Assembly: GCA_031552815.1 (NCBI GenBank)
Contig: JAVBMG010000008.1
Coordinates: 54,666-118,665 of the forward strand
DNA from: Opitutales bacterium
GTDB taxonomy: Bacteria > Verrucomicrobiota > Verrucomicrobiia > Opitutales > JAVBMG01
Direction: 5' to 3'
DNA: 64,000 nucleotides
A program made the position numbers and the translations under genes. This document shows, in pieces, positions 9,314 through 64,000 of the stretch. Under the pieces are notes generated by a model. That model worked only from the letters and a program-made list of their open reading frames with translations. It made no database searches and had not been told where the DNA came from. Within the stretch, counting starts at the first letter, position 1. The number at the start of each line of letters is the position of its first letter.

Positions 9314-12300
9314 TTATAAATATTTCCCTGTTGGGCTGTTTTTTATTTTTTTGATGCCGGAGAGCTTGCCTTGGTAGAGGATGTGGCCGCCGGCTTCGCC
9401 GCCTTCGGGGCCGAGTTCGATGAGCCAGTCGGCTTCCTTTATGATGTCAAGGTGGTGCTCAATGACGACGACGGTGTGCCCTTGGTCGACCATTTTCTGC
9501 AGGAGCCGTATAAGCCGTTCGCAATCGCTGAGATGCAGACCGATGGTCGGTTCTTCCAAGAGATAGAGGTTTGGTTTGAAATTCTGCAGGCGGACGGCGG
9601 CATTTTCCTTTGATGCTACCGTGATGCCGTTGAGGAGTTCGGCGACGAGTTTAAGGCGCTGGGCTTCGCCGCCGCTGAGTGTGGGGCTGGCCTGTCCGAG
9701 CGTGAGATAGCCGAGTCCGGTTTCGTTGATAAGGTCAAGGCTGAGCTTGAGGCGGTTGTAGCTTTCGAAGAAGACGGCAGCTTCCTCGAAGGTCATGGCA
9801 AGGACATCGGCGATGTTTTTTCCGCGCAGGCGGATATCGGCGAGTTCGGGTCCGTAACGGGTGCCGTTGCATTCCTCGCAGGTAACATAACTGTCGGGAA
9901 GGAAGTTCATCTCGACCTTGATTTTTCCTGCGCCTTTGCAGAAAGGGCAACGCCCGCCGTCGGTGTTGTAGGAGAAAACGCCCGAGCCGAAACCGCGCAT
10001 TTTTGCTTCGGGCAGCTGGGCAAAGATATCGCGTATCATGTCAAAAACGCCGATGTAGGTTGCGGGCGAAGAGCGCGGCGTTTTGCCGATGGGTGACTGG
10101 TCGACTTCTATGACCTGCCGGAAACTGTTTGCGCCGGAGAGCGATACAAACGGAGCCTGTTTCATTTCACGGAAGGTTACGGGCAGGTGTTTTCTGTGTC
10201 GGGAAAAGGTAAATTCGGGAAGGTTTTGACGGATGGCTTCGGATGCTACCGGGTGAAGGAGGTCACGGACAAGCGTGGATTTACCGGCGCCGGAAACGCC
10301 GCATACGATGGTGAGGCAGGCTTGGGGGATGGCGATGTTACCGCCTTTCAGATTGCGGAATCGCGGCTCACTCAGCAAAAGAACATTTGCTACGGATTTA
10401 TTCTTTTTATTCGCAGATTTCCCAGATGGCACAGAGAAAGAAGAATCGTTAATTCTCTTTTTCGAAATGTCTTTGCGTTCTTTGCGGTTAATTATCTCTT
10501 CGGCCTGGCTGACATCGCGGTAGCTTCCGTTGAACGGATGGGGAATGCTTTCGCGCAGAAGTTTTGCGGTGAGCGAGTGTTTGTTTTTAAGAACGGAGGC
10601 CACGGTTCCGGTTGCCATGATTTCACCGCCGTTTTTGCCGGCTCCGGGTCCGACGTCGATGAGATAATCGGCCTGGCGTATGGTGTCCTCGTTGTGCTCG
10701 ACCACAAGAATGGTATTTTCCTTTTTATTCAGTTCACGGAGCGCCAGAAGCAGTTTGTCGTTGTCGCGTGCATGCAAACCGATGCTGGGTTCATCAAGGA
10801 TATAAAGCGCGCCGGAGAGGTTTGAGCCGAGCTGCGAGGCAAGGCGGATGCGTTGGGCTTCGCCGCCGCTGAGCGTGGCGGTCGCTCGGTCGAGCGTGAG
10901 ATAGCTGAGCCCGACGCGGTCCATGAATTTGAGACGTTCTTCGATCTGCGAAAAGATGTCGCGCGCGATGCTGATACCGCGTTTGTCGAGTTTCAGTCTT
11001 TTCAGTTGTGAGAGCAAGGCGGTTGAACCGAGCGAAAGCAGCTTGGGGAGGGAAACCATGCTGCCGTCCTGAACGGGGAGAAAAACATGGCGGCTGATGC
11101 GGTTGAGGCGCTCGCCGTGGCAGTCGGGGCAGATTTGTCCGTCCTCGAATCCGGCCTGCGCATCAGCTTCTATTTCCTCCAGCGTTTCTTCCTCGTCCTT
11201 TTGTTTGAAGAGGAAGCCGTAACCGCGGCAAGCGGGACACCAGCCTTTGGGTGAGTTCCAGGAAAAATGCTTGGGTTCGAGTTCGGGATAGGCTTCACCG
11301 GTGACGGGATCCGTGCGTTCGGTCGAGAGCGATGCTACCGTCTTTCCTTTTGCGTCGCAAAGCAGGATGCTGCCGCGTCCGAGATCAAGGGCTTTCTGCA
11401 AAACGGTTTTTACATCGGTTTTGCTGAGGTCGGCGACACAGATTTCGATATCGTGTTCCTTATAGCGGTCAAGCTTGGTAAAGGCATCGGTGCGGACCAG
11501 TTTTCCGTCACAGCGCAGGTATTCATAATCGGATCGCCGCGCCCAGTTGGCAAGGGGCTGATAGTGTCCTTTGCGTCCTTTGACGAGGGAGGCGAAGAGC
11601 AGAAGCTTGCCGCGCTGTTTTCCGGCGGTAGCACGGATGCGGGCAAGCAGGTCGTCGAAGCTGCTTTCGGTCAGCGGTTTCCCGGTTTGCGGGCTGAACT
11701 GGATACCGAGCTTGGAATAGAGGAGACGGAGATATTGGGCGACCTCGGTGATAGTCGCGACGGTGGATTTCATGCTGCCGCGCGTGAGTCGTTGCTCGAT
11801 GGAAACCGTGGGCGGTATGTTGCTGAGGCTGTCAATGTCGGGCTTGGGGAGTTGCTCGACGAACTGGCGCGCATAAGCGGACATGGATTCCATGAACCGG
11901 CGTTGTCCTTCGGCAAAGAGGATGTCGAAGGCGAGCGTGGATTTTCCGGAGCCGGAAACGCCGCTGATGACGGAGAGTTTTCGGATGGGAATATCGACGG
12001 AAATGTTTTTGAGGTTGTGTTCGCGCGCGCCGCGCAGCGAAATCGCGGAAGGCAATTTCGCCGAGTCGGGAGAAGTGAGCGGAGAGAGAGTGGACAACTG
12101 TTTTCCCTGAGCTTTTCCTGTGATGTCCAGAAGCGCTTTGGCGGTCGCCGTGTTTTGTTTTTTGAGTTCATCCACGGTTCCGGCAAAGATGATTTTCCCG
12201 CCGTCGGTTCCTGCGCCGGGTCCCATCTCAATGACCCAGTCGGCTGCCATGATGACGTCCGGCTGATGCTCGACAACGACAATACCGTGTCCGAGCGATT

Positions 12301-15019
12301 GGAGTTTCCTGAGAACGTTGAGGAGCTGCTGGACGTCGTGGCGGTGGAGTCCGGTGGTAGGTTCGTCCAGCAGGATCAGTTGTGCGGCATTTTTGCTGAT
12401 GTTACCGCGGGCGGAGATGCTGCCGTCTTCCGATGTTTCAGCGTCATCGTTTTCCGCGGGTTGTTGTTTTTTCTTGTTCGAGGCGCTTTTGTCGACTTCG
12501 GCGGAAAGGGCGTGGACGAGTTTCAGACGTTGGCTTTCGCCTCCGCTGAGGGTGTTGAGCGCCTGGCCGAGCGGAAGGTAGCCGAGTCCGATTTCGATCA
12601 GCGGGAGGAGTTTGCGCGGTATCTTGGGGTGGCTGGTGAAAAAGACGTAAGCGTCGCTTGCGTCCATCTCAAGTATTTCGGCGGCATTTTTGCCGTTGTA
12701 TTTGATCGCCAGGGTTTCCTTGCGGAAGCGTTTACCTTCGCAGACGGGGCAGGTGATGAATACGTCGGAGAGAAATTGCATTTCGACCTGTTCGTAGCCG
12801 AGTCCCTGGCAATGGGGGCAGCGTCCGTCCCCGCTATTGAAAGAGAATGCGCCGGGTTCCATGCCGTAGGTTTTGGCTTCCTCCGTGGAAGCGAGGAGCG
12901 CGCGGACATCTTCCCAGACGTTCAGGTAAACGGCAGGCGTGGAGCGCGGGGTGCGGCTGAGAGGCGACTGGTCGATCCAGGTGACTGTCGGAAATGTGTT
13001 GCCGGGGACGGTGATCGATTTGATCTCCGCCCGTGTTTCCGTGGCGAGTCCGTGCTTGTCCGCAATGCCTTCGTGGATGACGCTCTGGAGAAGGGTGGAT
13101 TTTCCGGAACCGCTGAGTCCGGTGATGACGACGAACCGGGCGAGGGGGAGTTCAAGGTTGATACCGTTGAGATTGTGGCGGCGGCATCCGGTGAACGTTA
13201 TGCGGGGGGTCGTTTTCGTGACAGGACTGGGTGGCGGCAGCATGATCTGCTTCCTGCCGAAAAGATAATCGCCGCTGAGCGAATGTTTTGCCTTGGCGAG
13301 TTTTTCCATGCTGCCGGCAAAGATGAGTTTGCCGCCGCGTTTTCCGGGTTGGGGGCCGATCTCGATGATGTTGTCGGCAGCCCGCATGATGGTTTCATCG
13401 TGCTCGACAACAACAACGGTATTGCCCGAAGCGGTGAGCGAACGGAGGATGGTGATGAGCCGGTGGATGTCAGCGGAATGAAGCCCGACAGAGGGTTCGT
13501 CGAGCACAAAGAGCGTATCGTAGAGCGATGTGCCGAGGCAGGTGGTGAGATTGACGCGCTGGGTCTCGCCGCCGCTGAGTGTGCGTGTGGTGCGGTCTAG
13601 TGTGAGGTAGGAGAGCCCGACCGCCTCAAGATAACGGAGCCGCGTCAGGATATTCCGGAGCACGGAGTCCCAAGGAAGGTTTTGCGCGGTTTTGACGGTA
13701 GCTTCCTGCTTGGTTGTGTGGGCATTCAGGAGCGCCAGGAGTTCCCTGACCGGGAGTTGGTAGAGTTCCGGTAAGGTGCAGCCGTTCCATTTCCAGAGGA
13801 GGGATTCGGGCTGGAGTCGTTTTCCTTCGCAATAGGGGCAGCTTTGATAGGAGCGGAATTTGGAGAGGAAGACGCGGACGTGCATCTTGTAAATCTTGGT
13901 TTCCAGGTAGGAAAAAAAGCGGTTGATACCGTACCAGTATTTGTCCCAGTTCTGATCCTTGAACTCGGGCTGTCCTTCAATGATGAATTTTTGCTCGCGC
14001 GCGCTGAGTTCGCGCCAGGGTACATCGAGGCGAATACCGTTTTTCGCGGCGAGGCGGCGGAGGTCTTCAAGGCATTGGGAATTGACTTCGCCGTGAAAGG
14101 CTTTGATGGCTCCGTCGTTTACGGATAGGGTGGGGTCGGGAATGACACGGCGCATGTCGATCTCAAAGGTGCGTCCGAATCCTTTGCAATGCGGGCAGGC
14201 ACCGATAGGTGAGTTAAAGGAAAACATGGCGGGCGAGGCGGGACGGTAGCTTTTCCCTGAGACGGGAGAACGGAGTCCGGATGAGAACTTGCCGAGCATG
14301 CTGCCGTTATCGGCGTAGATGGCGATTTCACCGTGTCCGAAACGGAATGCCACTGTGGCAGATTCGATAAAGCGCGCCCGGTTTTTAGGATCGGTTTTGA
14401 TGCGGTCCTGGATGACGGTGATCCGGGGAAGTTCGGTTTTTGTTTCGAGGAGGTCTTCGATTTTTCTGATGCTACCGTCTGTGATGATCCGGTTGTAGCC
14501 TTGCGCGGAGATGCTCCTGAGGATTTCCACGGTTGCGAAATTGTCGGGTTTATTCAGGGTAAAGGTAATCAGACAATCGGTGTCCGCATGGTTTTTTAGG
14601 AGTCGTTTCCAGACAGATTGCGGATTATCGTCGTGGATGGCTTCCCCGCTTTCGGGATCGTAAAGCGTGGCAACCTGCGAAAACCATACCTTAAAATAGT
14701 CGCAGAGTTCAGTCATGGTACCGACGGTGGAGCGGGATGTCCTGACGGCATTTTTCTGTTCAAGGGCAATGGCGGGACGGATGTTTTCAACATCATCGAC
14801 AGCGGCTTTATCAAGCAGTTCAAGGAACTGGCGGGTGTAGGCGCTGAACGTTTCCGCATAACGGCGTTGCCCTTCCGCATAGAGCGTCTCAAACGCAAGC
14901 GAGGATTTTCCTGAGCCGCTGAGTCCGGTGATAACGGTGAATTTGCCGAGCGGAATATCGACATCGATGTTCTTCAGGTTGTTTTGCTTTACTCCCCGTA
15001 ACTTGATAAGTTCTTGCAT
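9314..15019 (-). CDS. uvrA: tandemly duplicated (fused) UvrA-like excinuclease ATPase, 1901 aa, four ABC nucleotide-binding domains
   Basis: There are two complete UvrA-like halves. Four Walker A sites: [36 protein letters not shown]. Four LSGGE signatures and four DEP/EEP Walker B motifs. Zn modules: [24 protein letters not shown]...CPVCEGKR, and [24 protein letters not shown]...CEECNGTR. Half 2 restarts with [19 protein letters not shown], parallel to the N-terminal [19 protein letters not shown]. Confidence 0.9.
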
Positions 15020-53181: not shown

Positions 53182-54240
53182 ATGAATACGAAGGAACTTA
53201 TTAATATAGGATTACAAAAAGATGCATCGGACGTTCACCTTTGTGAAGGTGATCCTTTGGTTCTTCGTGTTGACGGTGTGGTTAGCAAATTTCCCGAATA
53301 TCCGGTAACAAAAGAAAATTTGGATGAGGTCGTAGATAGCTGGATTACCGTGGCGCAGCGAAAAGGCTTTGTTGAATCGATGCATGCGGTTGACTTTGCG
53401 ACCAATATTGACGGGCAGGATATGCGCTGTCATATGTTCCTTTCAGGCGGAAAGCGTTGTATCGCCATCCGTTTCATGCGGGCAAAGATTCCGACCATGG
53501 ATGACCTCATGTTGCCCAAGGCGTTTCAGCAAATTATTAAGGATGGCCGTCCGACCGGATTAATTCTGGTCACCGGTTATACCGGCTCCGGTAAATCCAC
53601 GACACTCGCAGCCTCCTTGAACTGGTTAAACCAGAACGAGCCCTTGAATATTGTTACTTTGGAACACCCGATCGAATACCGTTACAAGCAGGAGAAAAGT
53701 ATTATCCGCCAGAGAGAAGTAGGCCGGGATGTTCATGACTTTAACGCGGGAATGGTAGATGCCATGCGTGAAGACCCTGATGTGATTCTGATCGGTGAGT
53801 TGCGTGATGCCGAAACCGTGAAAGCAGCGGTGTCTGCCGCGGAAACAGGACACTTGGTGTTTGGAACATTGCACACGCGTACGGCAGCATCAACTATTAG
53901 TCGTATTTTTGACGTGGTTCCTGCCGATGAACGTGACCAAATTCGCACCATGGTGGCTTCATCTTTGCTGGCGGTTATCGGTCAGCGACTGGTTCCGAAA
54001 ATCAGTGGCGGCCGTGTGGCTGTTTTTGAATTGATGGTAAACTGCCCGGCTGTGGCTGGGGCAATCCGTGAAAACCGCCCCGGACAGCTTGCGAATGAAA
54101 TCGCGGTAAAAAAAGAGCTGGGAATGATTGACTTTGATACTTGTTTATTAAACTACGTCCGGGATAAGGTAATCACACCTGAGGACGCCATAGCCACTTC
54201 TGACCGTCCTGATGAGCTGAAAAAACGCTTGGGCCGATAA
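53182..54240 (+). CDS. pilT: PilT/PilU-family type IV pilus retraction ATPase
   Basis: 352 aa. Walker A GYTGSGKST, Asp-box/Walker B DPDVILIGELRD, His-box GHLVFGTLHT and a C-terminal AIRENRPGQL (AIRNLIRE-like) motif. Confidence 0.88.
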   Translation: MNTKELINIGLQKDASDVHLCEGDPLVLRVDGVVSKFPEYPVTKENLDEVVDSWITVAQRKGFVESMHAVDFATNIDGQDMRCHMFLSGGKRCIAIRFMRAKIPTMDDLMLPKAFQQIIKDGRPTGLILVTGYTGSGKSTTLAASLNWLNQNEPLNIVTLEHPIEYRYKQEKSIIRQREVGRDVHDFNAGMVDAMREDPDVILIGELRDAETVKAAVSAAETGHLVFGTLHTRTAASTISRIFDVVPADERDQIRTMVASSLLAVIGQRLVPKISGGRVAVFELMVNCPAVAGAIRENRPGQLANEIAVKKELGMIDFDTCLLNYVRDKVITPEDAIATSDRPDELKKRLGR

Positions 54241-54253
54241 TCTATAAGCACTA

Positions 54254-56194
54254 ATGAAACAAACACTAAACAGTCTTGCCAAAGCCGGTTTGAAAAAGGG
54301 AACCTTCGGGATATCTCTTCTGATGCTTGCCATGCCGCTTGCGCTGGAAGCGCAGTTCGTGATTGCCATTGACGGAGCAGTGAACAATGCGGCGCAAAAT
54401 GCAAATGCTGAAGCTTCGGAAAAGGATATGCAAGTACAGCAGGCTCCGCAAAATCCAAAAAGTCCTTTGGACAAGATGATTCCTTATTTCAGCCAGGACG
54501 ACCAACCGATTCCCCGCGTAATGCAGGCGCTTGGCCGTTCAAACGGTATCAGTATCATTTGTGATCCGAATATTGACGGAAAAGTCTATGTGGAATTTTA
54601 TAACATCAGCCTGCGCGGTGCCTTGGATGCGATTTGCGATCCTTACGGTTTTTATTGGGAACTGGAACCGAATGGCTGGGTATCTATTCGCAGGACAAAG
54701 ACCATTATTTATCATGTGGAATATCCGCGTCTGGAACGTACGGGAACCGCCACCTCGGAAATCAACCTTGGAAACGTAGGCTATAGTAATAATAATAATA
54801 ATATGAACGGAGGAAGTTCCGGTGGCTCTTCGCGCGGCAGTGGCAGTGGTGGTGGCGGAAGCGGAAATAATGAAGAAGATGAAGATAAAGCCAGTGTCAA
54901 GGTTGAGCAGAAGAATGATGATCCTTTCTGGACAAAGCTGGAAACAGAATTGAAGAGTGTACTTATTGATGATAAGACAGAAAAAATCACATTTAATCGT
55001 TTTTCGGGAACCGTTCAAGTGACTGCCGGGCGCAAAACACACCAATATGTAACGGATTATCTTGGATCCATCAACATGCGGATCGGGATGCAGGTAGAAA
55101 TTGTGGCCAAGATTGTCGAGGTGCAATTGGATGACCAGCACAAACTGGGTATTGACTGGCGCCAGGCAGCAACGAGTATCGGCGGTAAAAATGGATTGCA
55201 GATCGGTCAGCCGGAACTGTCACCTTCTACGGGGGAAATCATGGGTGACGTGATCGGAAACACAAATATAATGAAATTCGGTAGTTTTGAATTTTCTCCG
55301 GATACCTTTTCCGGAACCATCGGTCTCGGTGACATCAGCGCAATGATTTACGCATTGTCGCAACAAGGAACCGTGAATACGATTTCATCACCGCGGATTG
55401 TAACGACCAATAACCAAACAGCGTATATCAAGGATACGAACGATAAGCCCTTCTTCCAGTTGCAGCAGTCTGCCGAATATCGTAATTATGATAATAACAA
55501 CGGAACCGATTCTACCTACCGTAGTTATCAGATTAATACCATTTCCATCGGTACTATCATGGCGGTAACGCCGCAGGTGGCGAATAACGGGGATATCACT
55601 TTGGATGTCATGCCGGCATTAACCCGTTTGAAAGATACCGCGACTTCGCCGGACAAATTGTCAAATGCTCCCGACCTTCAGGTTAAGCAGGCATCGACGA
55701 TTGTTCGTTTGCGTAGCGGGGAAACAGCCGTTATCGGCGGTTTGATTACGGATGCGGAAGGCGTGATGACACGCGGCGTTCCTTTCCTCGAAGACATTCC
55801 CTTTATCGGTAAATACCTGTTTCAGTCGGAAGCCACCTATCATACGAAAAGTGAATTGGTCATTTTCTTGACGCCGCGTATTATTAAACCGGGATCCTTG
55901 ATTGATATTGATGAGGAGACCAAGCGGAATGCGGTGAGAAATCATACCGTAACCCCGGTCAAGGCTCCGTCGATGCCGACAGGCATTTCTGATATTCGTG
56001 GTGCGAATGGTGAATATCATGACGGTTATCGTTACGATGGCAATGTTTACAATCAGGTCAGTTCCGACGGTAGCAACTATAACCAGGGAAACTACCGCGG
56101 ATCAAATACGGATGAGATCACGGACGAAGGCTTGGGGGGAGATGATCCGAGGCGAACCAAGCTCAAACCGGTCGAAAATGTAAGTTTATTTTAA
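54254..56194 (+). CDS. secretin (PilQ/MshL/GspD family outer-membrane channel)
   Basis: Signal peptide. The C-terminal secretin domain carries SSPRIVTTNNQTAYI and VPFLEDIPFIGKYLF...SELVIFLTPRII. There is an internal N/G/S-rich low-complexity linker. Confidence 0.85.
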   Translation: MKQTLNSLAKAGLKKGTFGISLLMLAMPLALEAQFVIAIDGAVNNAAQNANAEASEKDMQVQQAPQNPKSPLDKMIPYFSQDDQPIPRVMQALGRSNGISIICDPNIDGKVYVEFYNISLRGALDAICDPYGFYWELEPNGWVSIRRTKTIIYHVEYPRLERTGTATSEINLGNVGYSNNNNNMNGGSSGGSSRGSGSGGGGSGNNEEDEDKASVKVEQKNDDPFWTKLETELKSVLIDDKTEKITFNRFSGTVQVTAGRKTHQYVTDYLGSINMRIGMQVEIVAKIVEVQLDDQHKLGIDWRQAATSIGGKNGLQIGQPELSPSTGEIMGDVIGNTNIMKFGSFEFSPDTFSGTIGLGDISAMIYALSQQGTVNTISSPRIVTTNNQTAYIKDTNDKPFFQLQQSAEYRNYDNNNGTDSTYRSYQINTISIGTIMAVTPQVANNGDITLDVMPALTRLKDTATSPDKLSNAPDLQVKQASTIVRLRSGETAVIGGLITDAEGVMTRGVPFLEDIPFIGKYLFQSEATYHTKSELVIFLTPRIIKPGSLIDIDEETKRNAVRNHTVTPVKAPSMPTGISDIRGANGEYHDGYRYDGNVYNQVSSDGSNYNQGNYRGSNTDEITDEGLGGDDPRRTKLKPVENVSLF

Positions 56195-56228
56195 AGCAGA
56201 ACAGAACAAAAGCACTACTAACACTTCT

Positions 56229-57998
56229 ATGAACACACGCTCAACTAACACAACAAATACGTCGTCCCATGTAAATGGGAACGGTGCTGTTGTGCCGTTA
56301 TCGGACGGGGAGCAGGTGCAGGAGCCTAAGGTTATCCGTTTTGAACCGGATTTTCTCTGGATGCCGCAGGTTTTGGTTCAGCAAGGAGTCGGCGCAAGCA
56401 GTATCAAGCTGGCTACGGATTATTATAATCAGCAGGGCCGTCGGATGAGTTATGGGGCTGTTCTGATTGAGTTGGGATTGATGACTCCGCCTTCCGTAGC
56501 CAAGATGATTGCCGATTATTACGGATTTGAAACGATTTCTTTGGGTGGTTTGCGGGTGACTCCTGAGGTGGCAAAACTCTTGCCCGCAAACATTTCACGC
56601 CGCCGCAAGGTGATCCCGATTCAGCGCGAAGGGCAAACGTTGACGGTGGCAGTTGCCGATCCGTCCGAACCGGGGTTTGGTGAAGTGCCACAGTTATTGG
56701 GTCGTGTCGGCATGCGGAATATTATTTTCAAGATTGCCTTGGAAGCGGAAGTGATCGGGAAACTGGAAGAAGTGTGGGCGCCGAAAATTGACGTTACCGA
56801 TCCGGCTCGATTCTTTGACTTGCTCGTTAATGAGGCAGTGATGATGGGGGTTTCCGATATTCACGTGGTACCGGAAGAAACACATATGCAGATCAAGTTC
56901 CGTCTGGACGGATTTATTCATCCCTATCGGGTGATTGATGGTTCCAACAAGGAAGCCATTAATGCGCGCTTCAAGATGAAAGGCGGCTTGGATATTGCTG
57001 TTAAAAACGTACCGCAGGACGGACGTGCCAAACTAGTGTTGAACGGAAAAAAGGTAAATCTGCGTTTCTCTTCTTTGCCGACGCTTTATGGAGAGAGCTT
57101 GGTCATGCGTATTCTTGACCAGTCCAAGGGCATTGTTCCGTTGGAAAAGCTTGGTATGCTGGATGATACCAAGGCCACGATTTTAAAAGCCGCCAATGCT
57201 GCTTACGGGTTTACCTATTTTGTAGGTCCTACCGGTTCCGGTAAAACAACGTCGCTGTATTCCATTATTAATACCTTGGATGTCAGTAATTACACGATGA
57301 TGACCTTGGAGGATCCGGTGGAATATGAATTCCGTAATATTCGCCAGACGGAAATTACCGATAATCTGACCTTTGCTTCCGGATTGCGTTCGTTGTTGCG
57401 TCAGGATCCCGATTATATTCTGGTCGGTGAAACGCGTGACAAGGAAACCGCGGAGTTGTCCATGCGCGCTGCCTTGACAGGCCATACCGGGTTTTCGACC
57501 TTGCACGCCAATACAGCCTTGGGTGGAATCGCCAGATTGATTGATATCGGGGTGGATCCCAGCATCATCATCAGCGCGGTGAATATCTTCGTATCGCAGC
57601 GTCTGGTGCGCCGTCTTTGTACCTGTAAGGAGCCGCATCCGCATGCGCAGGCAGTGGCGGATCACTACAGTATCCAGTTAAAACCGGGGCAAATGCTGTA
57701 TCGTCCGAAGCCGGGAGGTTGTGGACTATGCAACGGAACAGGATACAAAGGACGCGTCGGATTGTACGAATGCCGTCCGGTTGAGCCTTTTGCCGATATT
57801 ATTGTCAAGTCAGGCAAAGATGCCTTGCGCGATTGCGAGGCGGAAGCAAGAAGACTTTATGCAATGGAAATGGAAAAAGAAGGAAGTTCCATTTTCAGAA
57901 CCATGCGCCGTGAAGGTTTTATCAAGGCTGCCATGGGGCTTACTTCCATCGAGGAAGTGGTTGCACAAACAGAACCCGAAGCCGGGTTCGGTTCCTAA
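56229..57998 (+). CDS. PilB/GspE/MshE-family assembly ATPase
   Basis: T2SSE N-terminal domain, Walker A GPTGSGKTT, Asp-box LRQDPDYILVGETRD, His-box GHTGFSTLHAN, and a tetracysteine CTC...CGLCNGTGYKGRVGLYE. Confidence 0.9.
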   Translation: MNTRSTNTTNTSSHVNGNGAVVPLSDGEQVQEPKVIRFEPDFLWMPQVLVQQGVGASSIKLATDYYNQQGRRMSYGAVLIELGLMTPPSVAKMIADYYGFETISLGGLRVTPEVAKLLPANISRRRKVIPIQREGQTLTVAVADPSEPGFGEVPQLLGRVGMRNIIFKIALEAEVIGKLEEVWAPKIDVTDPARFFDLLVNEAVMMGVSDIHVVPEETHMQIKFRLDGFIHPYRVIDGSNKEAINARFKMKGGLDIAVKNVPQDGRAKLVLNGKKVNLRFSSLPTLYGESLVMRILDQSKGIVPLEKLGMLDDTKATILKAANAAYGFTYFVGPTGSGKTTSLYSIINTLDVSNYTMMTLEDPVEYEFRNIRQTEITDNLTFASGLRSLLRQDPDYILVGETRDKETAELSMRAALTGHTGFSTLHANTALGGIARLIDIGVDPSIIISAVNIFVSQRLVRRLCTCKEPHPHAQAVADHYSIQLKPGQMLYRPKPGGCGLCNGTGYKGRVGLYECRPVEPFADIIVKSGKDALRDCEAEARRLYAMEMEKEGSSIFRTMRREGFIKAAMGLTSIEEVVAQTEPEAGFGS

Positions 57999-58029
57999 AA
58001 ACAAAATAATAAACTAAGATATAAATCAT

Positions 58030-58782
58030 ATGAAAAACACAATGAAAAGTAAGAAGGGTTTTACCCTTATTGAAATGTTGGGCGTTCTCGCCATTATCGC
58101 GATCCTCGTTAGTATCGTCGCTGTTGGCGTATTGAAGGCTATCAACCGTTCACGTATCGTTTCCACGGTCGCTAACTTCAAAACCTACGAAACAGCCATG
58201 TTGGCATTCGTAACTCTGCCGGAAACTTTGGGATTTCTCCCGATCACTGAAGGCGCAAGTAACTACACTACATCTGTTCCAACGATAGGCGGAACGCCAG
58301 GAGCAAATGCAACTGACCCAGATTTGTATACACTTGGTCAAGTATTCTTGGGCGCAGGAGTTCTTGAGCGCATGCCAACTTTCCGCGTAGGTCGTGAATT
58401 GCCTTTTGCTTCCGGTTCTGATGTTCAGGCAGTGTGGAGTCAATCAGACGTTGCATGGTTGGATACACCAGTGGCTAATGCAAAGTTCACAACACAAAAG
58501 AAAGCTCGCTGTGAGGCTGTTGTAGCTACCGCAACGATTGGTCTTGGTACGAATTTTGCTCTTGGCGGTGGCGGTACAGCATCTGTACCTGTAGGTGCAA
58601 CGATCGCTTATGTAGTTGTTCCGCAGGTATCTTCAGCAGACGCTGTTGAATTGTCCAAGGAAGTAAATGGTTCGTTGAACAAGGCGACATTGACTAACGT
58701 AAAGCAAGACGACGGTCGTTTGACATTTGCAGTAGCAAGTGGCGGAATGACTGATGTTTATTACTATATCGGTAATATGTAA
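58030..58782 (+). CDS. type IV pilin / pseudopilin with a prepilin-type N-terminal cleavage-methylation signal (250 aa)
   Basis: Leader MKNTMKSKKG followed by FTLIEMLGVLAIIAILVSIV (Gly-1, Phe+1, Glu+5). The C-terminal globular part has a single Cys. Confidence 0.85.
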   Translation: MKNTMKSKKGFTLIEMLGVLAIIAILVSIVAVGVLKAINRSRIVSTVANFKTYETAMLAFVTLPETLGFLPITEGASNYTTSVPTIGGTPGANATDPDLYTLGQVFLGAGVLERMPTFRVGRELPFASGSDVQAVWSQSDVAWLDTPVANAKFTTQKKARCEAVVATATIGLGTNFALGGGGTASVPVGATIAYVVVPQVSSADAVELSKEVNGSLNKATLTNVKQDDGRLTFAVASGGMTDVYYYIGNM

Positions 58783-58825
58783 TATGTGATGCGTTGAATT
58801 CGTAAGAGAAAACGATCAATTAACT

Positions 58826-58859
58826 ATGATAGGATAAGCAGTTTTGCTTATCCTATCAT
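58826..58859 (+). terminator. strong hairpin immediately downstream of the pilin gene
   Basis: A perfect 15-bp stem ATGATAGGATAAGCA-GTTT-TGCTTATCCTATCAT, 44 nt after the pilin stop. No long U-tract, so partial termination or a stabiliser role is plausible. Confidence 0.65.
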
Positions 58860-58875
58860 TCAATTAAGGTAGATA

Positions 58876-60180
58876 ATGAAACATGCGGTAATCATTTGGG
58901 AAAAAACAGTCTATTTCCGGACAAAGGATGGATGGCAGAAGAATGCCATAGGAAAAACGGAAAATGCTGTAAATGTCCTTGCTGATAATTTCAAGAAGGG
59001 ATCAAAGTTTTGTATTGCTTACGATCCGTATATTCTCAGTACGGAAGTGGTTGATTGTCCCAAAGGTCCCCGCACAGTCATGCGCGAATCGTTCCTTGAA
59101 ACGCATGATATGATTTCAAATGAGGAAACAGCGTGGGGTTACCAACCGCAATGGTCCAGCGGAGGAGGTGGTTTTTCCACATATTTGTCTTATGAAACCA
59201 ATCCCTCTTTGCTTCCGATGATGCAAAAAGCGGAAGAAGAAAAGGTGAAAATAAGCAGTGTTTATCCATTAGCGACTCTCGTTTCCCAAACTATAGGTGC
59301 CCCGGGAAAGACTTCTGTCTTTCTGATGATTGATAGCGAAATAAAACAGGCCTATATGGCTATTTCCTCGTTCACAGGAATGCGTGCCATACGCAAGATT
59401 TTCAATTCGGAGGATCGTCCGGTAGACCTGTGGGCGGAAATACAGCTTTTCTTGGCAGAATATGGAGTGGCTTTCGATTTTGTCGGACACTCAAAACCCC
59501 AGATTAAAATATTTCAGGCGTCGAATACGGACGTGAAGACAGAATGTCCCTTCTGGTCCGAAATGAATAATGCCTGCTCGGTTGATATACAAGCGTTTGA
59601 CGCACTCGAAAAACTACTTTTTGCGGTTCCGTCTCGTCATATAGGATCCATGACGGCAGGATTCCCTCAGGTGCTGAATATTGATCCTGTCTTTCAAGGA
59701 TTGGCAGTAGTGACCTTATTGGCATTGGGCTTTGTCGGATGGTTGTATTGGAGTGAACAGCAAGAGTTTCTGGAACAGCAACAGGAAATTACCAACCAGA
59801 AAAATGCTCAAGCAATAGTCAAAAATCAATTATTGAAAAATAAAAAGGAAATTGAATCCTTAAAGGTTTTGTTTTCGGAAGATAATCTTTTGGCCAGCAA
59901 GGAGAAAATCCGCTTTATTCAAGGCTTCTCCGAAGGACTACCCTTGGACTACACCGTAACTAATCTGCGTATTTTCCAGGATAATGCTTTTCAGATGGAT
60001 GGTATTTTATGGAATTTGAATGCAAAAACAACCAAGGAAAACGTTGCGAATCCGATCATTATGGCTTTGGAGCGCAGTGTGAAAGGTGTTCTTGTGGACA
60101 GTAAGAAAACACAGTTTAAAGGTCAGGAGCGGGGAGAACTGACTATTGAAGGTTCTATTCCTAAACAATTTGTGAAATAA
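58876..60180 (+). CDS. bitopic pilus/secretion assembly protein, GspL-like or PilM-PilN-fusion-like (topology-based)
   Basis: 434 aa: ~270-aa cytoplasmic domain, one TM (GLAVVTLLALGFVGWLYW), a coiled coil (QQEFLEQQQEITNQKNAQ) and a ~120-aa C-terminal domain. Position is directly after the pilin gene. No sequence motif was recognised. Confidence 0.45.
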   Translation: MKHAVIIWEKTVYFRTKDGWQKNAIGKTENAVNVLADNFKKGSKFCIAYDPYILSTEVVDCPKGPRTVMRESFLETHDMISNEETAWGYQPQWSSGGGGFSTYLSYETNPSLLPMMQKAEEEKVKISSVYPLATLVSQTIGAPGKTSVFLMIDSEIKQAYMAISSFTGMRAIRKIFNSEDRPVDLWAEIQLFLAEYGVAFDFVGHSKPQIKIFQASNTDVKTECPFWSEMNNACSVDIQAFDALEKLLFAVPSRHIGSMTAGFPQVLNIDPVFQGLAVVTLLALGFVGWLYWSEQQEFLEQQQEITNQKNAQAIVKNQLLKNKKEIESLKVLFSEDNLLASKEKIRFIQGFSEGLPLDYTVTNLRIFQDNAFQMDGILWNLNAKTTKENVANPIIMALERSVKGVLVDSKKTQFKGQERGELTIEGSIPKQFVK

Positions 60181-60183
60181 CCC

Positions 60184-60744
60184 ATGAATAATAAGAAAAA
60201 CAAGGTAAAATTGTCTCCGGTATGGATTATCTTTTGGGTATTTTTACTTGGAGGCATTGGTGGCGGACTGTACTATCGTGAGGTTATGACAGAAGAGGCA
60301 CTTATGGCTATTGCCCAATTGGAGAGTGAATTGAGTACAGAAAAAAATGCGGTTTCAGCCTTGCAAAAAGACTTTTCGAATGCGAAAGCGCAGGAAGCGC
60401 GTGATCGTGCCAATAAATTTAAAATGTCGATGTTGAGCAGGGCAGAAGTGAATGCAATCACTTCGAGCTATGCCGAACAATGGAACGTCAATAAAATCCG
60501 CGAGGATGACAATGACGAGTATATTCTGAGCCGTTATCAGTTAATGCGCGGTTCCAGCGGGGTTGCGGACTGGGAGATGATTTACAATACGATTTTGGAC
60601 TTGGACAAGCGAAGCGGCTTTGTCCTGGATACCTTGGATATAAGCACTGCAGGTGACAACCGCCAGAGGATGTTTTCCCGGGTGAGTATTGCTTTGCAGA
60701 TTTACATCAAGAAACCCGGTGATGAGGGGTTGTCGAAGAAATAA
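60184..60744 (+). CDS. bitopic protein with PilO/GspM-like topology
   Basis: 186 aa: short N-terminus, TM (VWIIFWVFLLGGIGGGLYY), a coiled coil and a ~100-aa C-terminal domain. It starts 4 nt after the upstream stop. Confidence 0.4.
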   Translation: MNNKKNKVKLSPVWIIFWVFLLGGIGGGLYYREVMTEEALMAIAQLESELSTEKNAVSALQKDFSNAKAQEARDRANKFKMSMLSRAEVNAITSSYAEQWNVNKIREDDNDEYILSRYQLMRGSSGVADWEMIYNTILDLDKRSGFVLDTLDISTAGDNRQRMFSRVSIALQIYIKKPGDEGLSKK

Positions 60745-60755
60745 GGAGAAATGAA

Positions 60756-61247
60756 ATGAAGAAAAAAAATCTAGTTTTTGTTTTTTGTTTGCTTGCTGGT
60801 TTTTCGGTGGCATTTGCGCAAAATAGCACTGGTTTCAAACCAAGTACGATTCCTGTTCGGGATGGTGTGGCTGCAACATTTCCGGGAGCGAATCCGGTAG
60901 CATCCGCAAACAATACCGGCAGTTATGCGAGCAGCACTCCTATTGATAAGGATTCGCCGCAGTACGCAGACATGATTTATAAAATGCGCGAATCCGTGCA
61001 ACGTATTGCCTCGGAATACGGTAATCCGGCTTTTGCCCAGGTCTTTACCAACGATAAGGACCGTGCGGAGGAAATCCGCAATAAACTGAAGGTCTTGGAA
61101 TCCCATGAAGCTTTGGCCCAGATCAATGAGGCGCTGAGCAAGCGGGAGAGCGAACTCCGCATGGAAATTGAACGTCTGGAAGCCCGTTTAAATGATCTTA
61201 AATACCGCGTGAACGAAGCACAGAAGCTTCTGGACGGAACCAAATAA
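60756..61247 (+). CDS. secreted coiled-coil protein of unknown function
   Basis: Signal peptide (LVFVFCLLAGFSVAFAQ) and a C-terminal heptad-rich segment. Operonic position in the pilus cluster. Confidence 0.4.
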   Translation: MKKKNLVFVFCLLAGFSVAFAQNSTGFKPSTIPVRDGVAATFPGANPVASANNTGSYASSTPIDKDSPQYADMIYKMRESVQRIASEYGNPAFAQVFTNDKDRAEEIRNKLKVLESHEALAQINEALSKRESELRMEIERLEARLNDLKYRVNEAQKLLDGTK

Positions 61248-61306
61248 ATCTTATTTGAAACTCTTTATTATCAGAATAAACATTTACACAGGTTAATTCA
61301 TCAATC

Positions 61307-62752
61307 ATGTTTAATGATACTTCCATTCAGTTGACTGAGATTGTCTTGCGTGTGGCCAACCATCTGGCTTTTCGCGGGCAAATGGATGAGTTGCCTGCGG
61401 AGGAAATACGTGCCAATATTTTGGCGGAATTAAGTCTCTTGGGTGCCGTGATTACCGAACAGTCGGAAGGGGTTTGGCACGTAAGTGATTTTGACAGCAA
61501 CGAAACTTGCCTGTTACGCGAAGAACAAGGAAACTACCATGTCGAATACATCAGCAATATTGACCCAATTACAGAAGAATGCGCAGCTTCGTCTTCAGGA
61601 GATGGAAGCGGAATGGAAGAAGACCCTCTTCGAGAAGTTTCGCACTATTTGCCGCGAGGAAATGATGGAGGTTATGAAGGATCTTTTGCAGACGACAGCA
61701 ATGGAATCCAATCAGTTGGTTACTTCGCTTCGCAAGGAGATGGAGGAAAGCAGCAAGGCTCAGGAGAGTATTATCCTTCAGGAGCTGGTGAAAACGGAAT
61801 CCAGGCTGGATGGATTGACGGATCAATTCAGGAAGAGCACGGAAGAATCGGAAGCGACATCCCAGGAAACGGCAAAGATGATCAAGGAAGTCGCCAGGGA
61901 GACTTTGATGGCGCAGCAGGTGATCAGCAAGGAAATGACGGAGAGTGCGAGCAAGGTTTCAGCCGGAAGCACAGTGTTGGTACTGAAATCAGCGATTCTG
62001 GCGATACTGCTAACGATAGTGATCTTGGTGGGCGGCGTATTTCTGATGAAAATGATGGATTGGCTTCCGGTAGTATCGACGCAGGAGGAACTGGCAGCGA
62101 TGCAGCAGGAAAATCAGAAATTGAGCAAACTGAGAACGGAGATTGCGGAACTGAACAAGGATCTGGAAGCGAAAAAGGCAGAAATGATTTTGTTGGACAT
62201 GAGACGCGGGGAACTGGACCAGGAAATAAAGAAATCCATGGCGGTCCAGGCAACGACTGTGCAGACCTTGAACAATCTTCAGGAGCAGACCAAGAAACTG
62301 CAAACCTTGCAGGAACAATTCCGCTTCAAGCTGCTTCAGGGGGATACGGGCGGAGTGTTCGTGGAGACAGCGGACGGATCGATGCCGTTCATGATGAACG
62401 GAAAGAGTTACATCCGGGTGAGGGAATAAAGGAAGCTTCCGTGGACGACGAATTGGTCGAACTCTCCATTGAGAAACGGATCAAGCGGGCGGAAATGTAT
62501 GCCTTGGAGCGTGAACTGCTCCTTCAGGAAAAGGAGCGTAAGCTTTTGGCAAAAAAACTGGATGAACTAAGTGCATTGCTTTCCGCAAGAAACATGGAGT
62601 TTGCCGAAGTTCACCAGAGTTTACAGGAATTGAAACAAATCAGAGAAAATCAGAAACAGGAAGTACAGACTTTTTGCAGTGAGCTTGATAATTTGCGTGA
62701 GGAATTTGACTCCTTGCAGAAGCGGCTATCCGGATTGTCTTCAGACGTTTGA
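61307..62752 (+). CDS. 481-aa ORF (frame 2): plausible N-terminal ~80 aa and C-terminal ~100 aa, with a G/D/S/E-rich centre that looks like off-frame translation
   Basis: The frame is uninterrupted from the ATG at 61307. The central 61560-62430 segment overlaps the better-looking frame-0 ORF and uses GGA for almost every Gly. See findings. Confidence 0.3.
   Translation: MFNDTSIQLTEIVLRVANHLAFRGQMDELPAEEIRANILAELSLLGAVITEQSEGVWHVSDFDSNETCLLREEQGNYHVEYISNIDPITEECAASSSGDGSGMEEDPLREVSHYLPRGNDGGYEGSFADDSNGIQSVGYFASQGDGGKQQGSGEYYPSGAGENGIQAGWIDGSIQEEHGRIGSDIPGNGKDDQGSRQGDFDGAAGDQQGNDGECEQGFSRKHSVGTEISDSGDTANDSDLGGRRISDENDGLASGSIDAGGTGSDAAGKSEIEQTENGDCGTEQGSGSEKGRNDFVGHETRGTGPGNKEIHGGPGNDCADLEQSSGADQETANLAGTIPLQAASGGYGRSVRGDSGRIDAVHDERKELHPGEGIKEASVDDELVELSIEKRIKRAEMYALERELLLQEKERKLLAKKLDELSALLSARNMEFAEVHQSLQELKQIRENQKQEVQTFCSELDNLREEFDSLQKRLSGLSSDV
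61539..62429 (+). CDS. bitopic coiled-coil protein (296 aa) of unknown function, pilus-cluster associated
   Basis: AAGGAA lies 6 nt upstream of the ATG at 61539. Third codon positions are G/C-rich, as in neighbouring genes. Heptad-rich N-terminal half, clear TM (VLVLKSAILAILLTIVILVGGVFLM), a second coiled coil and a small C-terminal domain. Confidence 0.6.
   Translation: MSNTSAILTQLQKNAQLRLQEMEAEWKKTLFEKFRTICREEMMEVMKDLLQTTAMESNQLVTSLRKEMEESSKAQESIILQELVKTESRLDGLTDQFRKSTEESEATSQETAKMIKEVARETLMAQQVISKEMTESASKVSAGSTVLVLKSAILAILLTIVILVGGVFLMKMMDWLPVVSTQEELAAMQQENQKLSKLRTEIAELNKDLEAKKAEMILLDMRRGELDQEIKKSMAVQATTVQTLNNLQEQTKKLQTLQEQFRFKLLQGDTGGVFVETADGSMPFMMNGKSYIRVRE
62441..62752 (+). CDS. 104-aa coiled-coil protein (alternative reading of the 3' end of the 61307 ORF)
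   Basis: GTG at 62441 is preceded by AAGGAAG with 5-nt spacing, 12 nt after the stop of the 61539..62429 gene. Regular heptad composition. Confidence 0.45.
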   Translation: MDDELVELSIEKRIKRAEMYALERELLLQEKERKLLAKKLDELSALLSARNMEFAEVHQSLQELKQIRENQKQEVQTFCSELDNLREEFDSLQKRLSGLSSDV

Positions 62753-62773
62753 TATCAATAAACATATTTTAAA

Positions 62774-63463
62774 ATGCGCTATTTATCTTTCATTGGTTTT
62801 TTCTTGTTCGCTTTGGGTTTTGGCATGGTGTCGGCTCAGGAAGATGTATCTTTGTTACCTGCTCCCGGGCGTGATGCCTCTGCACCTGTTTCAAAGTCAA
62901 GCGGTGCGGATGAAGTCGTAGTGCTTAAACTATCTGATGAAGTATCGAATGCGGAAAACAAGAACCAGGCAAAGCAAACTTCAGGGAGTAATGATGCATC
63001 GGCTAAAAAAGAGCCAAAACCGGCAGTCAATGTGAATGCCAATTCGAATCCTCCTGTTGCCAAGCCTATTGCGGCATCTCAGCCGAAAACACTTGCTTCA
63101 AACAAGGAAAAAGACCAGAAACCGATTCCGGCCGAGTTGAAGGAACCCGATAAGGATGGCATCGTCATGTTGGTGCGTCTGGTCGAATTAAATGCTTCCG
63201 CGCTTAACAATCCTTTTGAAATCAGAGTCCAACCAACGATTGCCACGGTTGATACGGTGATCGAAGTCGGCGGTATCATTCGCGGTTATACGGAAGGGCA
63301 GCATACGGCCATTGTGAACGGGCGGGTATACTCGCAGGGGGATATGGTCGATGGATTCAAGATTTATTTGATTTTGGAAAAAAGTATCATCGTTGAATAC
63401 AACAATAAATACGTGAATATTCCGCGTGACCGTAAAATCACGCTGCGTTTGCCGCAAAGTTAG
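62774..63463 (+). CDS. secreted protein with a GspB/MshK/PilP-like C-terminal domain
   Basis: Signal peptide and a K/P/A/N-rich linker. The C-terminal pattern GIIRG..GQHTAIVNGRVYSQGDMVDGFKIYLILEKSIIVEYNNKYVNI resembles the A-I-x-N-G-x-x-Y-x-x-G-D...V-x-x-I motif of T2SS-B/PilP-type proteins. Confidence 0.5.
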   Translation: MRYLSFIGFFLFALGFGMVSAQEDVSLLPAPGRDASAPVSKSSGADEVVVLKLSDEVSNAENKNQAKQTSGSNDASAKKEPKPAVNVNANSNPPVAKPIAASQPKTLASNKEKDQKPIPAELKEPDKDGIVMLVRLVELNASALNNPFEIRVQPTIATVDTVIEVGGIIRGYTEGQHTAIVNGRVYSQGDMVDGFKIYLILEKSIIVEYNNKYVNIPRDRKITLRLPQS

Positions 63464-63472
63464 GTAATCACT

Positions 63473-64000
63473 ATGCCATCCTATGTAGTCAGGTATGTAA
63501 CAGAGACAGGAGCAAAGAAGAAGGAGGTTTTCTTTGCTCCTGATATGGTTTATTTGCGCGGGGTTTTACAGCGGAAGAATTATTGGCCGTTGAGTATCGA
63601 AGTGCAGGAAGGCGGCTTCCGGAAATATAAGACGCGGCTTTCTGCCGGGGATACGATTTCCATTTTGGACCAGGTCGAAATCCAGTTGCAGGTGAGCATC
63701 AATGTAGATGACGCGTTCAGGAATTTGGCTGAGGAGGTGCAAACCAAGAAAGTTAAGTTTGTTGTATCCCGTATATCAGACAGCATTGATTCCAATGGGC
63801 GTGTGGCTGATGCCTGTGGCCAGTTTCCTAATATTTTTCCAGATCATATTCGGCAAATGATTTCTGTCGGGGAGGATACGGGAAAACTCGCTCCGTCTTT
63901 TACCCGGGTGATAGAATATTTCAAGGCTGCTGATACATTGATGGGAACCATCAAAAATGCCAGTATTTATCCTTCTCTTGTGCTTGGCGCGATGATGGTT
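63473..64000 (+). CDS. PilC/GspF-family inner-membrane platform protein (5' part, truncated by the window end)
   Basis: Open frame from the ATG at 63473 to the last base; it is not in the ORF track because it has no stop. First T2SSF domain pattern FPNIFPDHIRQMISVGEDTGKLAPSFTRVIEYF, followed by the first TM (IYPSLVLGAMMV). Confidence 0.85.
   Translation, partial: MPSYVVRYVTETGAKKKEVFFAPDMVYLRGVLQRKNYWPLSIEVQEGGFRKYKTRLSAGDTISILDQVEIQLQVSINVDDAFRNLAEEVQTKKVKFVVSRISDSIDSNGRVADACGQFPNIFPDHIRQMISVGEDTGKLAPSFTRVIEYFKAADTLMGTIKNASIYPSLVLGAMMV

Follow-up and report, generated by a model that had tools for sequence, protein, structure and literature searches.

A probable ancient same-strand nested gene pair, open in two frames over about 890 nucleotides, in a type IV pilus/type II secretion-like operon of Opitutales bacteria

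Why should a stretch of bacterial DNA stay free of stop codons in two frames of the same strand over most of a thousand nucleotides? The question is raised by contig JAVBMG010000008.1 of the Opitutales bacterium assembly GCA_031552815.1, where a stretch of 64,000 nucleotides (positions 54,666 to 118,665 of the forward strand, here called the window and numbered from its first letter) carries a long open reading frame (ORF) that entirely contains a second ORF on the same strand. We refer to the outer ORF as frame or gene A and to the nested ORF as frame or gene B; the frame of B is shifted by +1 with respect to A, and that of A by -1 with respect to B. A first-pass annotation made from the letters of the window had described both ORFs and had offered, with no preference among them, four explanations: true overlapping genes, a programmed frameshift, an indel or assembly error, and compositional chance. 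Both ORFs are indeed where it placed them, with A (61307-62752) containing B; the ORF list gives frame B as open from 61485 to 62429 with an ATG at 61539, the ORF coordinates place all 891 nt of the shared stretch inside A, and the third forward frame has 42 stops across the same span. Comparison of the sequences leads us to a reading that we hold to be quite probable, namely that A and B are a genuine and ancient same-strand nested gene pair in which one stretch of mRNA would be translated in two frames. Coordinates are collected in Table 1.

A stop codon arises in frame A wherever a B codon ending in T precedes a B codon starting with AA, AG, or GA (an at-risk pair), so that the openness of A can be scored against the coding requirements of B. 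The earlier rough count (about 31 T-ending codons, about 90 codons beginning AA, AG, or GA, and about 9 stops expected) holds: on recount B has 38 T-ending codons and 94 codons of the second kind, from which 12 frame-A stops would be expected if the two were independent, and synonymous shuffling, with the B protein and the codon usage of B kept constant, yields 8.7 ± 2.2. The observed number is zero, and zero was reached in 0 of 100,000 shuffles; the first-pass annotation had named a comparably open frame at appreciable frequency under such shuffling as an outcome that would count against it, and the trials gave none. Recoding B with the codon usage of the 45 other genes of the window raises the expectation to 12.6 stops. 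By the same measures the third frame across B is unremarkable in the window (27 stops observed vs 25 expected), and in the 45 other genes the equivalent frame has a ratio of observed to expected stops (O/E) of 0.84, with a longest open run of 174 codons. One of the genes that served as a codon-usage control is a 1,901-aa ORF (9314-15019, minus strand) with the highest fraction of G or C at third codon positions (0.66) among the window genes. That frame A is open far beyond chance is confirmed.

It could still be argued that the open frame is a compositional or codon-context artefact of a purine-rich gene for a Glu-, Lys-, and Gln-rich coiled coil with few T-ending codons. The A/B region is certainly purine-rich (GC skew and AT skew both about +0.25 to +0.3), only 12.8% of B codons end in T, and the mild stop deficit just mentioned is genome-wide; but the shuffles, which retain the B protein together with its skewed codon usage, never reach zero stops, third-position T is normal where no frame-A stop is at risk (38 vs 39.9 expected) and absent where one is (0 vs 13.9 expected), the third frame and the window control genes are normal, and the result is replicated in 16 loci ranging from 43 to 62% GC. 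We regard an artefact of composition as highly improbable. The reverse shuffle, in which the A protein is fixed and frame B is asked to be open, gives P ~0.25; an open frame B is unsurprising given the A protein, the test is uninformative, and the reality of B rests instead on homology and on the ratio of nonsynonymous to synonymous substitution rates (dN/dS). Two antisense ORFs of 102-109 aa opposite the overlap (61924-62253 and 62010-62318, both on the minus strand) probably come about as a side effect of the strong purine skew on the coding strand.

The replication comes from 16 complete related loci, orthologous or paralogous, and one partial locus, which we designate by L-numbers. They were retrieved from termite Opitutaceae metagenome-assembled genomes (MAGs), Geminisphaera colitermitum TAV2 (two loci), an Ereboglobus MAG, Ereboglobus PH5-10, and contigs encoding B homologs, and they represent a finished genome (TAV5, CP007053), drafts (TAV1, TAV2, and Ereboglobus PH5-10), and MAGs or contigs held in the NCBI, JGI, ENA, and Logan repositories. 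The 17 full-length homologs of B (~295 aa, 31-36% identity) were found in Opitutaceae TAV1/TAV5, Ereboglobus, and metagenomes; A has one full-length homolog, the divergent protein P0002 (487 aa, 40% identity). Frame A has no stop inside B in any of the 16 complete loci, nor in the partial one, against shuffle expectations of 1.4-10.6 stops per locus that sum to ~82 (or ~58 with one locus per lineage), while third-frame counts match expectation across the loci. In each case frame A extends from a conserved Met 74-79 codons 5′ of the B start to a point 80-140 codons past the B stop. When 12 loci are pooled, a T-ending codon precedes an AA, AG, or GA codon in 0 of 944 cases, compared with 295 of 2,617 elsewhere (Fisher p = 4e-42). 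A scan of metagenome contigs added a single short fragment, L008, which agrees with this over the part that it covers. The nested pair occurs twice per genome, in different neighborhoods, in TAV1 (L011/L012 and L017) and in TAV2 (L003 and L006), the L011 copy not being adjacent to a T2SSE/T2SSF set; both copies in both strains keep frame A open.

An indel or assembly error, whereby a stop was removed or three separate genes (for the N-terminal part of A, for B, and for the C-terminal part of A) were fused, has nothing in its favor beyond the oddity of the arrangement, and the same architecture is found in the complete TAV5 genome, in drafts, in MAGs, and in contigs from four repositories. Nor did any of the loci contain a frame-A stop shortly after ~61560, the feature of an ortholog that the first-pass annotation had predicted would refute its proposal, and for which we looked. 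Because the openness of frame A spans 43-62% GC, finished, draft, and MAG sources, four repositories, and paralogous copies, we exclude assembly error and chance alike, and assign to the former a probability that is close to nil.

Selection acts differently on the different parts of the pair. Between L002 and L004 (~92% nucleotide identity) dN/dS is 0.07 in the N-terminal domain of A and 0.14 in frame B, as against 1.66 for frame A across the overlap and 1.56 for the third frame; eight more pairs give 0.11-0.42 for the N-terminal domain, 0.18-0.45 for B, 0.76-2.2 for the middle of A, and, where dS is unsaturated, 0.31-0.56 for the C-terminal extension of A. This pattern implies that the N-terminal domain, B, and the C-terminal part are coding and constrained. 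Several impressions first gained from the window alone are borne out: the B product is genuine, having 17 full-length homologs, invariant columns, a dN/dS of 0.14-0.45, and a conserved ribosome binding site and ATG; the A product looks genuine at its ends (N-terminal domain 0.07-0.42; C-terminal part mostly 0.3-0.56, with one close pair at ~1); and the center of A, with a ratio of 0.8-2.2, does look off-frame, yet has a composition skewed by selection, a point that the first-pass annotation had missed. Together with the retention of the dual-frame layout in all of the complete loci, which derive from independent assemblies, these frame-specific signatures favor true overlapping genes among the four explanations.

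The skew is seen most directly at the third positions of B codons, which are the first positions of frame-A codons, scored here against genome codon usage. At the at-risk positions of B in the window we observe A 9, C 18, G 67, and T 0, where 27.2, 17.6, 35.3, and 13.9 are expected; the 45 control genes have O/E ratios of 1.02, 1.04, 1.11, and 0.84 for A, C, G, and T, and B falls outside the range of every one of them. The skew is replicated in L001, L009, L011, L013, and L014. Summed over six loci, i) frame-A stops number 0 where 64 are expected; ii) frame-A Lys codons (AAA/AAG) number 18 where 50 are expected; iii) the rare Arg codons AGA/AGG are reduced to 11 from an expected 70, whereas the common Arg codons CGA/CGG are at expectation (76 vs 75); iv) Trp (TGG; 2 vs 12), Tyr (27 vs 53), and Cys (22 vs 40) are depleted; and v) Glu, Gly, and Asp are enriched. 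Such a signature is what one would expect if frame A were translated into a disordered chain, acidic and poor in aromatic residues, and encoded without rare codons.

These figures bear on the main rival explanation, according to which A is read through B merely as a delivery route to its C-terminal part, the middle being a functionless by-product that might be trimmed or cleaved, and the N- and C-terminal parts being separate entities. The C-terminal part has no independent start or Shine-Dalgarno (SD) sequence conserved across the loci, so that ribosomes from the N-terminal domain would have to read through to reach it; the AAGGAAG-N5-GTG that the first-pass annotation had noticed just after the B stop is present in the window but is not conserved in the relatives. 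The lack of sequence constraint on the middle of A, and the readiness of annotators to call the C-terminal part of the relatives as a separate gene of 96-124 aa, also speak for such a route. On the other side, a plain start codon would be far cheaper than keeping ~890 nt free of stops in 16 loci, and the skew goes beyond stop avoidance (Lys, Trp, Tyr, and Cys down; Glu, Gly, and Asp up), which weakens the rival and argues that the translated middle is itself under selection. We consider a mere delivery route unlikely.

An SD sequence for B (GAAGGAA or AAGGAA) lies 6-8 nt 5′ of ATG-TCG-AAC in all 12 aligned loci, and the invariant Met-Ser-Asn of B starts at a distance from it that is usual for initiation; the AAGGAA which the first-pass annotation had pointed out before the ATG at 61539 is this conserved element, at 61527-61532. 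A strong and conserved SD for B would fit the idea that one is required at an internal start within a translated ORF. The leader of A is AT-rich without an SD, as is typical here, 41 of 45 control genes lacking the SD core. The core is seldom seen in this genome, only 4 of 45 presumed genes having one, and most genes of the cluster have AT-rich leaders.

The same junction could be read as a site of programmed frameshifting, either a +1 shift near 61535-61545 joining the N-terminal domain of A to B, or a -1 shift towards the end of B that would join B to the C-terminal part of A, with the open frame being incidental. The relative phase of the frames (+1 for B, -1 for A) makes both fusions geometrically possible, and an SD-like element does lie directly 5′ of the junction. 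The spacing of that element is of the initiation type, however; a scan of 12 loci turned up neither a canonical X_XXY_YYZ heptamer in frame B nor a conserved homopolymer; the junction nucleotides vary by lineage (AAC TAC CAT vs ATT TAT TAT) and offer a +1 shift no tRNA re-pairing; frame A continues for ~1.2 kb past the B start in every locus, so that the zero frame does not end near the junction; and frameshifting leaves the ~82 missing stops along the whole of B unexplained. With no conserved slippery sequence, an SD and ATG belonging to B, and A open so far beyond the junction, the frameshift entertained in the first-pass annotation is very improbable.

What, then, would the two products be? 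In AlphaFold2 (AF2) models the N-terminal domain of A, although built from only 2 sequences, has two helices followed by four strands with a predicted local distance difference test score (pLDDT) of 80-89, and its motif LGA-V...W-V-D-E...C-I-E--G-YYVE is conserved in the 12 aligned loci (alignment A2); the domain has no Pfam, NCBIfam, or PDB fold match. The linker has a pLDDT of ~30 throughout, the segment predicted to be unstructured coinciding with the B overlap, and over the 12 loci it contains 16-26% Gly, with an isoelectric point (pI) of 4.2-5.7 and a grand average of hydropathy of -0.6 to -1.3. The C-terminal part (aa 381-480) is modeled as a single helix, is 47% identical to L001 in frame A, has weak coiled-coil-type Pfam/NCBIfam matches, and is always in phase with the N-terminal domain in the loci, without an intervening stop. 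A fold search of the A model against PDB returned nothing significant (best E = 0.07), and Pfam/NCBIfam searches with A, B, and the unannotated neighbors yielded only generic coiled-coil noise. The end of A differs among lineages: in the high-GC relatives (L002, L003, L005-L007, L009, L011, and L013-L017) it is a shorter helix followed by a basic tail, comprising the last ~40-80 codons, rich in Lys, Arg, Ala, and Pro with a pI of 10-12, and resembling the tails of histone H1 or AlgP; in the window and L001 the coiled coil is longer and acidic, and the basic tail is absent.

Gene B encodes a conserved protein. The 19-sequence alignment A1 has 36 invariant columns and the 18-sequence alignment A3 has 40; conserved features are an invariant N-terminal block, MSN...QLRLQEME-EW--TLFE-FR-ICREEMM-VM, and a C-terminal block, QEQFRFKL-KGE-GGVFVE...F...I-VK. 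The AF2 model from 18 sequences (mean pLDDT 70, predicted template modeling score (pTM) 0.27) is nearly all helix; it shows long helices, a transmembrane (TM) helix (146-175), and a coiled coil (183-260), with a small beta element at the C-terminus. The hydrophobic block of the TM segment is conserved in alignment A1, while the same nucleotides read in frame A give hydrophilic Ser, Asp, Gly, Thr, and Asn residues. The start of B (MSNTSAILTQLQ) has neither a signal peptide nor a lipobox. No Pfam/NCBIfam match to PilN-, PilO-, GspL-, or GspM-like profiles was found at E<=0.01 beyond generic coiled-coil noise; the predicted layout, which runs from a cytoplasmic N-terminus through the TM helix and a periplasmic coiled coil to a small beta domain, is compatible with a protein of the PilN/PilO/GspL/GspM kind, as is the operon, in a model with a pTM of 0.27.

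A scheme for the pair can be proposed as follows. Ribosomes starting at the ATG at 61307, behind an AT-rich leader without an SD, would make the 481-aa cytoplasmic A, consisting of a small folded alpha/beta N-terminal domain, a predicted disordered linker of ~295 acidic and Gly-rich residues, and a 100-residue coiled-coil helix. The strong conserved internal SD would recruit other ribosomes to the start at 61539 in the +1 frame, giving the 296-aa B, a putative bitopic membrane protein with a conserved cytoplasmic N-terminus, a coiled coil, a TM helix, a periplasmic coiled coil, and a small beta domain. This protein probably serves as a structural component of the surrounding type IV pilus/type II secretion-like machine. 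The demands on the linker of A would be that it is free of interruptions, hydrophilic or acidic, and easily translated. Since it needs only openness and composition, the protein sequence of B is left almost free, and the cost falls on the synonymous third positions of B. It is probable, then, that a membrane-protein gene has long been carried in the disordered-linker region of a second protein of the same machine, through Opitutaceae genera, a lower-GC sister group, and duplications, with selection on the openness, charge, and codon quality of the linker acting through synonymous sites of B. We infer that the whole of A is translated into a single polypeptide, that A and B act in one machine, and that the pair arose by overprinting.

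Several observations weigh against a nested pair of functional genes: i) the middle of A shows no purifying selection at the sequence level (dN/dS 0.76-2.2), and for want of such constraint its function rests on openness and composition; ii) part of the G excess at third positions could reflect selection on the translation of B itself, as a weaker excess (O/E 1.25-1.3) is also seen at positions that are not at risk; iii) in the L002/L004 pair the C-terminal extension has a dN/dS of ~1, over 55 codons; iv) by profile searches neither A nor its N-terminal domain has homologs outside this group, so that no independent functional annotation backs A; and v) the evidence for the pair consists of sequence comparison and structure prediction. 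The searches behind the fourth point were large. An exhaustive HMMER search of 1.84 billion representatives with an A profile returned only P0001 (the A protein of the public record), P0002, and one spurious kinesin-repeat match, and the HMMER search of 1.84 billion representatives revealed no stand-alone gene for the N-terminal domain; a profile of that domain had no matches among 5.8 billion proteins.

Table 1. Features of the nested A/B pair and of its operon (window coordinates)
Feature	Coordinates	Strand	Remarks
Gene A (outer; N-terminal domain, overprinted linker, C-terminal helix)	61307..62752	+	ATG to TGA, 481 aa; open in 16/16 complete related loci
Gene B (nested; predicted bitopic inner-membrane coiled-coil protein)	61539..62429	+	296 aa; +1 relative to A; 17 full-length homologs
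A, N-terminal folded domain	61331..61552	+	aa 9-82; AF2, conservation, and dN/dS
A, central linker (-1 frame of B)	61559..62437	+	aa 85-377; Gly-rich, acidic, predicted disordered
A, C-terminal helix (coiled coil), 3′ of B stop	62447..62746	+	100 residues; AF2 pLDDT ~97
B, Shine-Dalgarno AAGGAA, within A coding sequence	61527..61532	+	kept in 12/12 aligned loci
B, transmembrane helix	61974..62063	+	aa 146-175; AF2 helix and hydrophobic stretch VLVLKSAILAILLTIVILVGGVFLMKMM
PilT-family ATPase	53182-54240	+	Pfam/NCBIfam
Secretin	54254-56194	+	Pfam/NCBIfam
GspE/PilB-type ATPase with MshEN domain	56229-57998	+	Pfam/NCBIfam
Prepilin-type protein	58030-58782	+	Pfam/NCBIfam
Three uncharacterized envelope proteins	58876-60180, 60184-60744, 60756-61247	+	
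229-aa protein with weak T2SSB/CdsD_C-like C-terminal domain	62774..63463	+	Pfam matches just under threshold
Strong terminator-like hairpin, 15-bp stem then T-rich tail	63507-63542	+	terminator scan

The A/B pair belongs to a type IV pilus/type II secretion-like operon (53182-63463). The upstream gene order is shared around the pair in L001, L009, L013, and L016, and orthologs of the 229-aa gene follow the pair in every locus, a T2SSF platform gene coming next in the relatives; the operon of the window seems to end before such a gene. Promoter and terminator scans gave no signal inside the unit, counts being at shuffle level, and a tRNA scan of the window found none. The clusters of some relatives extend into proteins with Flg_new_2 (Listeria-Bacteroides repeat) domains (L009 9376-10906, L013 8363-9993, and L014 4737-5711), among them giant ORFs of ~3,900 aa; these proteins may be cargo or surface fibers of the system.

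No annotation pipeline reports both A and B. In the public record of this genome only A is called (P0001); in the relatives B is called together with a separate gene of 96-124 aa after it, and the N-terminal domain is left in a gap of ~250-280 nt. The coordinates of such gaps and extra genes are 4724-5001 and 5957-6325 in L009, 1265-1621 in L014, 1929-2303 in L015, 3442-3732 in L016, and 3520-3831 in L017. Long same-strand overlaps in cellular prokaryotes are usually taken as annotation errors, and gene finders forbid them. If the nested pair is real, annotation rules against long co-directional overlaps hide such cases systematically, and intrinsically disordered linkers would be natural hosts of nested genes in cellular genomes, for which one could search systematically. 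The locus offers clean comparative evidence (stop avoidance, skew, purifying selection on the flanks, and retention after duplication) for a bacterial dual-coding segment of ~890 nt; it flags two unannotated or misannotated components of a verrucomicrobial type IV pilus/type II secretion-like machine; and, as the TAV strains and Ereboglobus are cultured, it is a tractable test system.

Among known systems, that nearest to A/B in architecture is the Rz/Rz1 spanin pair of phage lambda, where a longer gene harbors another in its +1 frame on the same strand; both products come from one mRNA segment and are associated with the envelope, one of them being a bitopic coiled-coil membrane protein (PMC5295617, PMC6139136). 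The likeness lies in a complete gene embedded in the +1 frame of the same strand; the differences are that spanins belong to a phage lysis cassette and A/B to a cellular operon of the type IV pilus/type II secretion kind, that Rz1 is a lipoprotein of ~60 aa whereas the embedded B is a larger and better conserved membrane protein of 296 aa, and that the outer gene A encodes only a disordered linker over the overlap, with no sequence or fold relationship to the phage proteins. We also considered whether A/B might itself be a spanin pair, and rejected this: B has no signal peptide or lipobox, its single TM helix spans aa 146-175, and the surrounding genes do not form a lysis cassette.

Within cellular bacteria, comS of Bacillus subtilis is a same-strand, out-of-frame gene of 46 codons inside the large nonribosomal peptide synthetase gene srfA. 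A/B shares this kind of nesting in a cellular bacterium, but its nested gene has 296 codons and is hosted by a linker, not by an enzyme domain. Non-trivial overlaps of more than 600 nt in bacterial chromosomes, ignored by annotation pipelines, are exemplified by nog1, laoB, and pop in enterohemorrhagic Escherichia coli and by olg1 and olg2 in P. aeruginosa (PMC7103648, PMC5810103, PMC8850804). Those genes are antisense, young, taxonomically narrow, and supported mainly by expression; A/B is same-strand, is old (B is ~33% identical across carriers), and is backed by comparative signatures. As for co-directional prokaryotic overlaps of more than 60 bp, Palleja et al. (as cited in 10.1101/724807) reported that virtually all of them are artefacts.

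The nearest evolutionary pattern is that of viral overprinted genes with a disordered partner, in which one frame is ordered and conserved, the other is of low complexity or disordered and evolves fast, and the shared nucleotides constrain both (PMC8227390; 10.1101/229690). Viruses are under pressure on genome size, however, whereas A/B resides in the large (6-7 Mb) genomes of free-living or gut bacteria, is conserved between genera, and has undergone duplication as one block. We conclude that A/B is probably a cellular, same-strand, ~890-nt, ancient, and unit-duplicated form of nested or overprinted genes, with both frames kept in all relatives examined, which is very rare for cellular bacteria.

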